NCBI RefSeq assembly: GCF_055900595.2
Contig: NZ_CM148325.1
DNA length: 64,000 nt
Reading direction: 5' to 3' (one strand)
Positions 32,736 to 33,992 of the stretch are shown here, in pieces. The position numbers and the translations under genes are program-made. How positions within the stretch are numbered: position 1 is the first letter of the stretch; every line of letters starts with the position of its first letter. The notes under the pieces are model-generated. The model searched no databases and was not told where the DNA came from. It saw only the letters and a program-made list of their open reading frames with translations.

Positions 32736-33992
32736 ATGGGATCTGATGCGAAAAACTTGATGAGCGACGGGAACGTGCAAATTGTTAAGACCGGCGAGGT
32801 CATTGGCGCGACGCAACTTACTGAAGGTGAGTTAATTGTTGAAGCTGGCGGAAGAGCCGAAAATACCGTGGTCACGGGGGCTGGCTGGTTGAAAGTTGCA
32901 ACCGGTGGGATCGCCAAATGCACACAGTACGGCAACAATGGCACGCTATCGGTCAGTGACGGTGCCATTGCCACAGATATTGTTCAGTCAGAGGGAGGCG
33001 CAATTAGTCTCTCTACGCTCGCTACGGTTAATGGCCGCCATCCCGAAGGTGAATTTAGCGTTGATCAGGGTTATGCCTGCGGTTTGTTGCTGGAAAATGG
33101 CGGTAACCTGCGTGTACTGGAAGGCCATCGCGCGGAAAAAATCATTCTCGATCAAGAGGGCGGCCTGTTGGTCAATGGGACAACCTCAGCGGTCGTGGTA
33201 GATGAAGGTGGTGAATTGTTGGTGTATCCAGGTGGGGAAGCCAGCAATTGTGAGATTAATCAGGGCGGCGTTTTTATGCTGGCGGGGAAAGCCAGTGATA
33301 CATTGCTTGCTGGTGGCACCATGAATAATCTCGGTGGTGAAGACTCTGACACTATTGTTGAGAATGGATCCACTTATCGTCTGGGGACGGATGGCCTTCA
33401 GCTCTATAGTTCCGGTAAGACGCAAAACCTGTCCGTTAATGTGGGTGGTCGGGCTGAAGTGCATGCTGGTACGCTGGAAAACGCGGTAATACAAGGTGGG
33501 ACAGTGATCTTGTTGTCACCCACCAGCGCGGACGAAAATTTTGTCGTAGAGGAAGATCGCGCACCGGTTGAACTGACCGGGAGTGTTGCATTACTGGACG
33601 GCGCTTCAATGATTATTGGCTATGGCGCAGATCTGCAACAATCATCGATTACTGTACAGCAAGGCGGTGTGTTGATTTTCGATGGCAGCACGGTAAAAGG
33701 TGACAGTGTCACTTTCAATATTGGTAACATCAATCTGAATGGTGGAAAACTGTGGCTGATCACTGATGCGGCAACGCATGTGCAACTGAAAGTGAAACAC
33801 CTGCGCGGAGAGGGAGCGATTTGCCTGCAAACCAGTGCGAAAGAAATTTCACCTGACTTCATCAATGTGAAAGGGGAAGTTAACGGTGATATACACGTTG
33901 AGATAACCGATGCCAGTCGGCAAACTCTGTGTAACGCACTGAAACTACAGCCAGACGAAGACGGGATTGGCGCAACGCTCCAGCCTGCGTAA
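32736..33992 (+). CDS. ydhQ: autotransporter-passenger-like beta-helical repeat protein lacking a translocator barrel (418 aa)
   Basis: Gly/Thr/Val-rich repeats typical of adhesin passenger domains (AIDA-like); no C-terminal beta-barrel. Confidence 0.85.
   Translation: MGSDAKNLMSDGNVQIVKTGEVIGATQLTEGELIVEAGGRAENTVVTGAGWLKVATGGIAKCTQYGNNGTLSVSDGAIATDIVQSEGGAISLSTLATVNGRHPEGEFSVDQGYACGLLLENGGNLRVLEGHRAEKIILDQEGGLLVNGTTSAVVVDEGGELLVYPGGEASNCEINQGGVFMLAGKASDTLLAGGTMNNLGGEDSDTIVENGSTYRLGTDGLQLYSSGKTQNLSVNVGGRAEVHAGTLENAVIQGGTVILLSPTSADENFVVEEDRAPVELTGSVALLDGASMIIGYGADLQQSSITVQQGGVLIFDGSTVKGDSVTFNIGNINLNGGKLWLITDAATHVQLKVKHLRGEGAICLQTSAKEISPDFINVKGEVNGDIHVEITDASRQTLCNALKLQPDEDGIGATLQPA

Follow-up and report, generated by a model that had tools for sequence, protein, structure and literature searches.

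The gene ydhQ, located in a 64,000-nucleotide stretch of DNA from NCBI RefSeq assembly GCF_055900595.2 (contig NZ_CM148325.1; the whole stretch is called the window below, and all positions refer to it), encodes a protein that is an autotransporter by origin, but not a working one. YdhQ is probably an internal segment of an Ag43-type passenger that was inserted in an Escherichia ancestor and has since been kept by purifying selection as a cytoplasmic beta-helix. The gene, its AIDA-type repeats and its lack of a signal peptide are already recorded in databases and papers, with ‘ydhQ: AIDA repeat-containing protein’ as the RefSeq annotation. The label ‘autotransporter adhesin’ has been given to ydhQ repeatedly in the literature, and YdhQ appears in a 2026 paper as a ‘leaderless autotransporter’ display anchor. 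What is added here is an explicit test of membership among the autotransporters, the genus-wide constraint on the gene together with a cysteine signature of its product, and the boundaries of the insertion. A piece of a secreted adhesin that is kept intact across a genus under purifying selection, apparently in the cytoplasm, makes ydhQ a candidate for functional work and a tractable example of how domains are exapted. The coding sequence is as follows.

32736..33992, + strand: ydhQ coding sequence, 418 amino acids plus stop; passenger-type beta-helix of the AIDA/Ag43 (SAAT) kind, with neither leader nor barrel

YdhQ corresponds to an internal segment of an Ag43-type passenger

The open reading frame at 32736-33992 (+) is a clean frame of 418 codons. 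Its product is very acidic, leaderless and rich in glycine (Gly 15%, Leu 10%, Val 9%, Ala 8%, Thr 8%). A reading of the same DNA made from the sequence alone, called the sequence-only reading below, had described a Gly/Thr/Val-rich protein resembling AIDA-type passenger domains, and both the composition and the Pfam scan agree with this. The Pfam AIDA profile (PF16168) matches YdhQ in three stretches (E 6.9e-29; 100.1 bits, cutoff 27), and TIGR04415 reaches 45.9 bits with its cutoff at 30. With AIDA strand-loop-strand repeats above the Pfam gathering score, YdhQ belongs by homology to the AIDA/Ag43-type (SAAT) repeat family. In NCBIfam, it matches the equivalog PRK09945 with 933 bits; the models for Ag43 (positions 249-445 of 948) and AIDA-I also match, well below their cutoffs.

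A single-sequence AlphaFold2 model of YdhQ was mediocre, with a predicted local distance difference test score (pLDDT) of 67. A better model was built from a 21-row alignment (A1) of orthologs and colinear autotransporter segments. This model is all-beta, with a pLDDT of 91 and a predicted template modelling score (pTM) of 0.88, and is uncertain only at residues 1-7 and 264-274. Foldseek against the Protein Data Bank (PDB) ranked Ag43 first (7koh, E 1.9e-11), followed by TibA, IgA1 protease, UpaB and pertactin; the best structural matches of the model include TibA, Ag43b, Ag43 and Vag8. The beta-helix suspected in the sequence-only reading is thus supported by the model, and a non-beta-helical fold was not seen. 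Searches with phmmer against PDB sequences gave the same relatives (Ag43, E 2e-25 to 3.5e-22; TibA, E 3e-13). In an exhaustive HMMER search over 1.84 billion representatives, the matches beyond orthologs and short fragments were mostly long proteins, the best of which is P0026 (1534 amino acids, 38% identity). The possibility of barrel-less homologs outside Escherichia was rejected on the basis of this search: the four long relatives that were scanned are autotransporters, and the few short matches look like frameshifted or truncated autotransporters.

Comparison with full-length autotransporters, which the sequence-only reading had proposed, showed no complete autotransporter architecture and placed YdhQ inside the passenger. 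Residues 25-380 are colinear with residues 251-605 of an Ag43-family precursor, and residues 165-400 align to the C-terminal passenger and autochaperone region of autotransporters. Since YdhQ is colinear with precursor residues ~251-605, both ends of an autotransporter are absent from it. It ends ~30-35 residues short of the passenger end, and full-length relatives extend 280-400 residues past that point with the rest of the autochaperone, the linker and the barrel. The final beta-hairpin of the passenger is absent, and the alignment to YpjA-like and other autotransporters stops at ‘...GGGDASFTLG’. Antigen 43 (Flu/Cah) and TibA are self-associating autotransporters (SAATs) of type Va, and the Pfam AIDA and NCBIfam Ag43 matches place YdhQ in their repeat family. 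Compared with both, YdhQ has no signal peptide and is missing the first ~200 residues of the passenger as well as the last third of the autochaperone and the whole translocator, with its alpha-helical linker and 12-stranded barrel; it also carries scattered cysteines and is cytosolic when expressed as encoded. Three parts of YdhQ stand out.

32916..33155, + strand: most constrained module, an AIDA strand-loop-strand/hairpin (amino acids 61-140); ratio of non-synonymous to synonymous substitutions (dN/dS) 0.02-0.05; aligns to Ag43 residues ~201-322
33516..33575, + strand: acidic loop SPTSADENFVVEEDRAPVEL (amino acids 261-280); dN/dS 0.03-0.06; predicted disordered (pLDDT <50 at 264-274)
33723..33944, + strand: truncated autochaperone/Pertactin domain (amino acids 330-403); covers Pfam profile positions 2-78 of 121

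The alignment of the first module to Ag43 was made by phmmer with 7ko9, 7koh and 4kh3. Despite its predicted disorder, the acidic loop is as conserved as the core of YdhQ and may represent an interaction motif.

YdhQ has also been grouped in the literature as an Ag43 homologue with YpjA, YcgV and YfaL, which are cryptic Ag43-like autotransporters in E. coli K-12. Those three are treated as autotransporters, and YcgV-T has served as a translocation-only scaffold, whereas YdhQ is barrel-less. Two fragments in our searches (P0040 and P0062), which we take to be of the YpjA type from the K-12 sequence, can be aligned to YdhQ over the C-terminal part of the passenger and the autochaperone.

One of four defining autotransporter features is present

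Type Va autotransporters carry an N-terminal Sec signal peptide that is often extended by ESPR, a right-handed beta-helical passenger, a complete autochaperone (AC/Pertactin) domain and a C-terminal 12-stranded barrel that follows an alpha-helical linker. YdhQ has one of these four defining features, the beta-helix, and fails on the other three. Lacking the signal peptide, the complete autochaperone and the beta-barrel, it is unable to work as an autotransporter. This calls for caution over the autotransporter labels given to YdhQ and over the display results obtained with it. Several of these points go beyond the sequence-only reading, namely the lack of a signal peptide, the autochaperone domain cut at profile position 78 of 121, and the colinearity with Ag43 ~251-605.

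At the N-terminus, neither a hydrophobic segment nor a match to ESPR or any other N-terminal Pfam domain is found, the maximum 19-residue hydropathy within the first 40 amino acids being 0.53, and SignalP 6.0 is negative for YdhQ (PMC13101318). A longer N-terminus or a hidden upstream signal peptide was considered and is ruled out by an in-frame TAA two codons before the ATG, together with stops in all three upstream frames. From the sequence, an AAGGA Shine-Dalgarno motif lies 6 nt 5′ of the ATG.

32724..32732, + strand: Shine-Dalgarno (aaagga) followed by the in-frame TAA at 32730-32732, two codons before the ydhQ ATG

At the C-terminus, the missing barrel noted in the sequence-only reading was confirmed. 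Neither the Autotransporter beta-domain (PF03797) nor ESPR was found in YdhQ by Pfam, even at E<=1. As a positive control, four full-length relatives were put through the same scan. A complete Pertactin domain (2-120 or 4-120 of 121) was detected in all four and PF03797 in three (P0146, P0147 and P0098), and P0026 carries ESPR and AC_1. Since these modules are seen in the controls, the scan would have detected a barrel, ESPR or a complete Pertactin domain in YdhQ. P0026 itself, the best full-length relative, combines ESPR with 11 stretches of AIDA, and its AC_1 and Pertactin domains are complete; its ~340 C-terminal residues have no PF03797 match at E<=0.001, and its barrel may be divergent.

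The barrel is not encoded nearby either. In tblastn searches of the 64-kb window with seven full-length autotransporters, no barrel-coding sequence was found, and the only matches were in the passenger-like part of ydhQ; remnants of a passenger or barrel in the flanks of ydhQ or elsewhere in the window were likewise sought by tblastn, with none found. The immediate neighbours are the following.

32270..32427, - strand: two tRNA-Val(GAC) genes (valW/valV), identified by ARAGORN and the Rfam tRNA model; upstream neighbours, divergent from ydhQ
34033..35406, - strand: mdtK (MATE efflux pump), convergent downstream neighbour of ydhQ, leaving no space for a barrel-coding region

The mdtK gene begins 40 bp past the ydhQ stop. 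The absence of an adjoining partner, also noted in the sequence-only reading, therefore stands. With two tRNA-Val genes and mdtK as neighbours and no TPS/Haemagg_act match in YdhQ, a two-partner (type Vb) system is not found at the locus. The same applies to type I (RTX) secretion, as no HemolysinCabind match is present in YdhQ and no ABC or membrane fusion protein gene adjoins. The suggestion that a barrel is supplied in trans fits poorly. YdhQ would have to reach the periplasm first, and it has neither a signal peptide nor space for a hidden one; it stays in the cytosol unless a signal peptide is added (PMC13101318), and it carries scattered cysteines. A role in a defence system was rejected, with none of the PADLOC families matched at E<=1. 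The PHROG matches to YdhQ are large proteins of unassigned function, presumably prophage-borne and Ag43-like.

ydhQ is intact and constrained throughout the genus

Of 5426 complete E. coli genomes, 5424 carry ydhQ at a coverage of >=80%. Orthologs of 418 amino acids occupy the same locus in E. albertii (80% amino acid identity), E. marmotae, E. ruysiae, E. whittamii and Escherichia sp. A version of 419 amino acids with 71% amino acid identity lies at the mdtK-valV locus of an enterobacterial lineage found in three Logan metagenome assemblies (SRR31578456, SRR26188688 and SRR26188687; loci L003, L016 and L017). The MdtK of this lineage shares 95% of its amino acids and 83% of its nucleotides with that of the window, compared with 97% amino acid identity for E. 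albertii and 92.6% for Salmonella. Based on these identities, the lineage is deeper than E. albertii and closer than Salmonella. Our scan of the genome collection, which is pattern-limited, listed only five Escherichia loci and missed typical E. coli genomes, so that nothing can be concluded from the lack of E. fergusonii in it.

None of the 11 sampled orthologs contains a stop, and each is 418-419 amino acids long. Within the genus, dN/dS of ydhQ is 0.09-0.14 at a dS of 0.4-1.1 (Nei-Gojobori). Compared with the deep lineage (L003), the ratio is 0.06-0.12 at a dS of 1.6-3.4, which is near saturation. Every segment of at least 60 codons is constrained (dN/dS <=0.33). For comparison, the ratio is 0.01-0.02 for mdtK and ~0.06 for ydhR. 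The Shine-Dalgarno/TAA block is kept in E. albertii, E. marmotae and the deep lineage L003, and the terminator hairpin downstream of ydhQ is kept in E. albertii and E. marmotae.

These data bear on the proposal of the sequence-only reading that ydhQ is a remnant of an autotransporter. The derivation from a passenger is clear, but the decay that the word implies is contradicted: ydhQ is not a decaying gene. A non-functional remnant, in which the signal peptide and the barrel were deleted and the leftover open frame is drifting, would account for the absence of both ends relative to every full-length relative and for the lack of a growth or phage phenotype on ydhQ deletion. It would also be consistent with a few singleton truncated variants of 370-391 amino acids in the protein database and with one disrupted allele, in E. 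coli AR_0013 (L015 4306-7223), where an ISEcp1 (IS1380-family) transposase splits ydhQ into two annotated pseudogene halves. A drifting frame would not be expected to remain intact in 11 of 11 orthologs at a dS up to ~1.1 or more, with a dN/dS of ~0.1 over its whole length and conserved Shine-Dalgarno, start and terminator. Among the genomes listed, RefSeq marks ydhQ as an intact coding sequence except for the one allele disrupted by an insertion sequence (IS), and the native protein has been quantified in proteomes (PMC6561319). Taken together, we regard a pure remnant as very unlikely. The split and IS-disrupted autotransporter pseudogenes and fragments of E. coli resemble ydhQ in having an incomplete architecture from loss of terminal modules. 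In contrast to these, ydhQ is a single clean frame with its own translation signals, a genus-wide constant length and purifying selection, and without frameshifts or stops.

ydhQ was gained by insertion between mdtK and valVW

The origin of the locus was examined by comparison with three outgroups. The two tRNA-Val genes come 150-410 bp after the mdtK stop in Salmonella, Enterobacter and Pseudenterobacter, and tblastn found no trace of ydhQ at these loci. A full-length ydhQ ortholog at the same position is therefore excluded in these three genera, in which mdtK directly adjoins tRNA-Val. Homology of the outgroups to the window stops at ~34031, at the mdtK stop. It begins again a short distance upstream of the valV promoter-like site, at 32502 in Salmonella and Enterobacter and at 32538 in Pseudenterobacter. 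Because mdtK directly adjoins the tRNAs in the outgroups, ydhQ represents a lineage-specific insertion of ~1.5 kb on their 5′ side.

32503..34030, strand not assigned: lineage-specific insertion of ~1.5 kb, flanked by the mdtK stop and the valV promoter region; absent from three outgroups

The insertion is bounded exactly by the mdtK terminator and the valV promoter, which raises the question of whether the locus is retained at the DNA or RNA level, as a spacer or insulator, as the mdtK terminator or as upstream elements of the strong valVW promoter. Conservation of the common hairpin terminator and of the promoter-proximal block would fit such a role. However, selection of this kind would not give a 10-fold non-synonymous deficit in one frame across 1.25 kb, and a gap of 150-410 bp from mdtK to valV is enough in the outgroups. 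It is the codon-level constraint that contradicts this explanation, as it does the pure remnant, and we consider selection at the DNA level very unlikely.

Our preferred explanation is that an insertion between mdtK and valVW in an Escherichia ancestor brought in an internal piece of a SAAT passenger (Ag43/TibA/AIDA-type), which starts in the middle of the helix and includes the first two-thirds of the autochaperone domain. The segment might have arrived as a fragment as such or as a full gene that was later trimmed. It would then have gained its own Shine-Dalgarno, ATG and terminator, and purifying selection would since have retained YdhQ as a soluble, very acidic right-handed beta-helix.

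Cellular location and possible roles of YdhQ

The cysteines of YdhQ give a first indication of where the protein resides. Each ortholog has 3-7 scattered cysteines, of which C115 and C363 are invariant. In the homologous autotransporter segments of alignment A1, which come from full-length or truncated autotransporter relatives, 10 of 12 are cysteine-free, and each of the remaining two has one pair at close spacing. Cysteines that form disulfides in the periplasm are known to impair the translocation of autotransporters (PMC1533851). The scattered cysteines of YdhQ may therefore mark a long residence outside the oxidising periplasm. In experiments, YdhQ reporter fusions without a signal peptide were fluorescent, folded and cytosolic (PMC13101318). 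YdhQ likely stays in the cytoplasm, and a rigid platform for binding or self-association is the role that we propose for it there. The constrained hairpin module (amino acids 61-140) and the conserved acidic loop (amino acids 261-280) would be its likely contact sites. No effect of ydhQ deletion on growth in the laboratory or on infection by T7 has been reported, the deletion strain has been used as a neutral control, and the gene serves as an integration site; the wide use of ydhQ as a ‘neutral’ site presupposes the absence of a function.

A more specific possibility is a true exaptation, in which the beta-helix of a secreted adhesin was turned cytoplasmic and took on a new job, possibly tied to the translation or RNA machinery. 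YdhQ copurifies with EF-Tu (PMC2672614) and is listed as an RNA-interactome candidate (bioRxiv 10.1101/2023.07.03.547468). The link to translation is proposed because of these two observations and the divergence of the gene from the valVW tRNA operon. Such a specific role seems to us unlikely. In this scenario, the hairpin module and the acidic loop would be the interaction surfaces. If true, YdhQ would be a rare documented example in which an autotransporter passenger was domesticated for use inside the cell.

Several observations weigh against YdhQ being a retained cytoplasmic beta-helix. EF-Tu is a frequent copurification contaminant. Purifying selection on ydhQ is ~7-fold weaker than on mdtK. 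The gene is dispensable, since at least one strain carries ISEcp1 within it. The cytosolic location was obtained with YdhQ fusions and not with the native untagged protein (PMC13101318). In the same study, fusion of an exogenous signal peptide to YdhQ resulted in extracellular reporter activity, so that the helix is able to leave the cytoplasm if it is targeted. Also, a secondary source, apparently citing Roux et al. 2005, states that ydhQ is needed in early adhesion, which points to the cell surface (PMC9110714), and the COG group of YdhQ has been found in extracellular-vesicle proteomes.

The last three observations favour the main rival explanation, according to which YdhQ is a surface adhesin that aids initial adhesion after unconventional export. 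Possible routes are a barrel, BAM or TAM in trans after non-Sec export, flagellar type III secretion, type I secretion, or release by lysis or vesicles followed by re-binding. Further points in its favour are an in vitro FlhDC peak reported by gSELEX in the ydhQ-valV spacer (PMC9962212) and the acidic, Gly-rich and leaderless nature of YdhQ, which resembles many type I substrates. Positively selected sites, as are common in surface proteins, are also reported for ydhQ (PMC9110714). On the other hand, YdhQ has no signal peptide, ESPR, TPS domain or RTX repeats, no transporter gene adjoins and no barrel is encoded in the window. The autochaperone domain, which is normally required for folding of the passenger at the surface, is truncated, and scattered, partly invariant cysteines are atypical of passengers that cross the oxidising periplasm. 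The construct of native type, without an added signal peptide, remained cytosolic. The display assay relied on agarase activity on plates and a membrane-permeable fluorogen, with barrel or outer-membrane integration outside its scope (PMC13101318). The adhesion report, the vesicle proteomics and the display with an added signal peptide do not address native signal-less YdhQ. On balance, a surface adhesin is improbable.

Surroundings of ydhQ

The noncoding regions on both sides of ydhQ contain the following elements.

32428..32735, strand not assigned: valV-ydhQ divergent intergenic region, with a valVW promoter-like site and the ydhQ 5′ region
33999..34024, strand not assigned: GC-rich hairpin with T-runs on both strands, likely a bidirectional terminator common to the convergent genes ydhQ and mdtK

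The valVW promoter-like site (TTGCCA-17-TAATAT) lies at 32482-32454 on the minus strand. It was the only promoter-like site to turn up, and no sigma-70 consensus promoter for ydhQ was found. The region 32428..32735 contains no passenger-coding remnant, having stops in all three forward frames and no match to an autotransporter query, and an Rfam scan found nothing relevant in the ydhQ 5′ region.

The ydhQ and mdtK alleles of the window are only ~97% identical to those of most complete E. coli genomes. At >=99% identity, the ydhQ allele is shared by 12 and the mdtK allele by 3 of 5425 genomes, none of them identical. The DNA thus seems to derive from an E. coli lineage that is uncommon and differs from K-12.

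The tRNA pair valV-valW beside mdtK is a hotspot for islands. Type III secretion genes of SPI-2 (L012 8523-15371; Pfam names SsaO/SsaP) lie 3′ of the tRNAs in Salmonella, and type VI secretion genes (L013 8528-15305) occupy this side in Enterobacter. In Escherichia, the cluster ydhR-ydhS-ydhT… occupies the 3′ side, with ydhQ on the 5′ side. The composition of this cluster varies: ydhS sits between ydhT and ydhR in E. coli, E. marmotae and E. ruysiae, and in E. albertii (L001 4251-5432) ydhT is directly followed by ydhR, the 534-amino-acid ydhS being absent.

Within the window, ydhT (29303-30115, + strand) encodes 270 amino acids and matches NCBIfam PRK09946. Its C-terminal part, which has no Pfam match, consists of ~9-10-residue repeats (…RIATAGYAAQIASMGYSVRIGSVGFNSHIGSSGERARVAVTGNSSRISSAGDSSRIANTG…) that resemble a small solenoid or beta-helix. 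At 32146-32308 on the plus strand, a full-length Rfam match to RF02194, ‘HPnc0260 bacterial antisense RNA’, was found (110 bits against a gathering threshold of 59, E 2.9e-15). It lies opposite in strand to the first tRNA-Val and the ydhR 5′ end.

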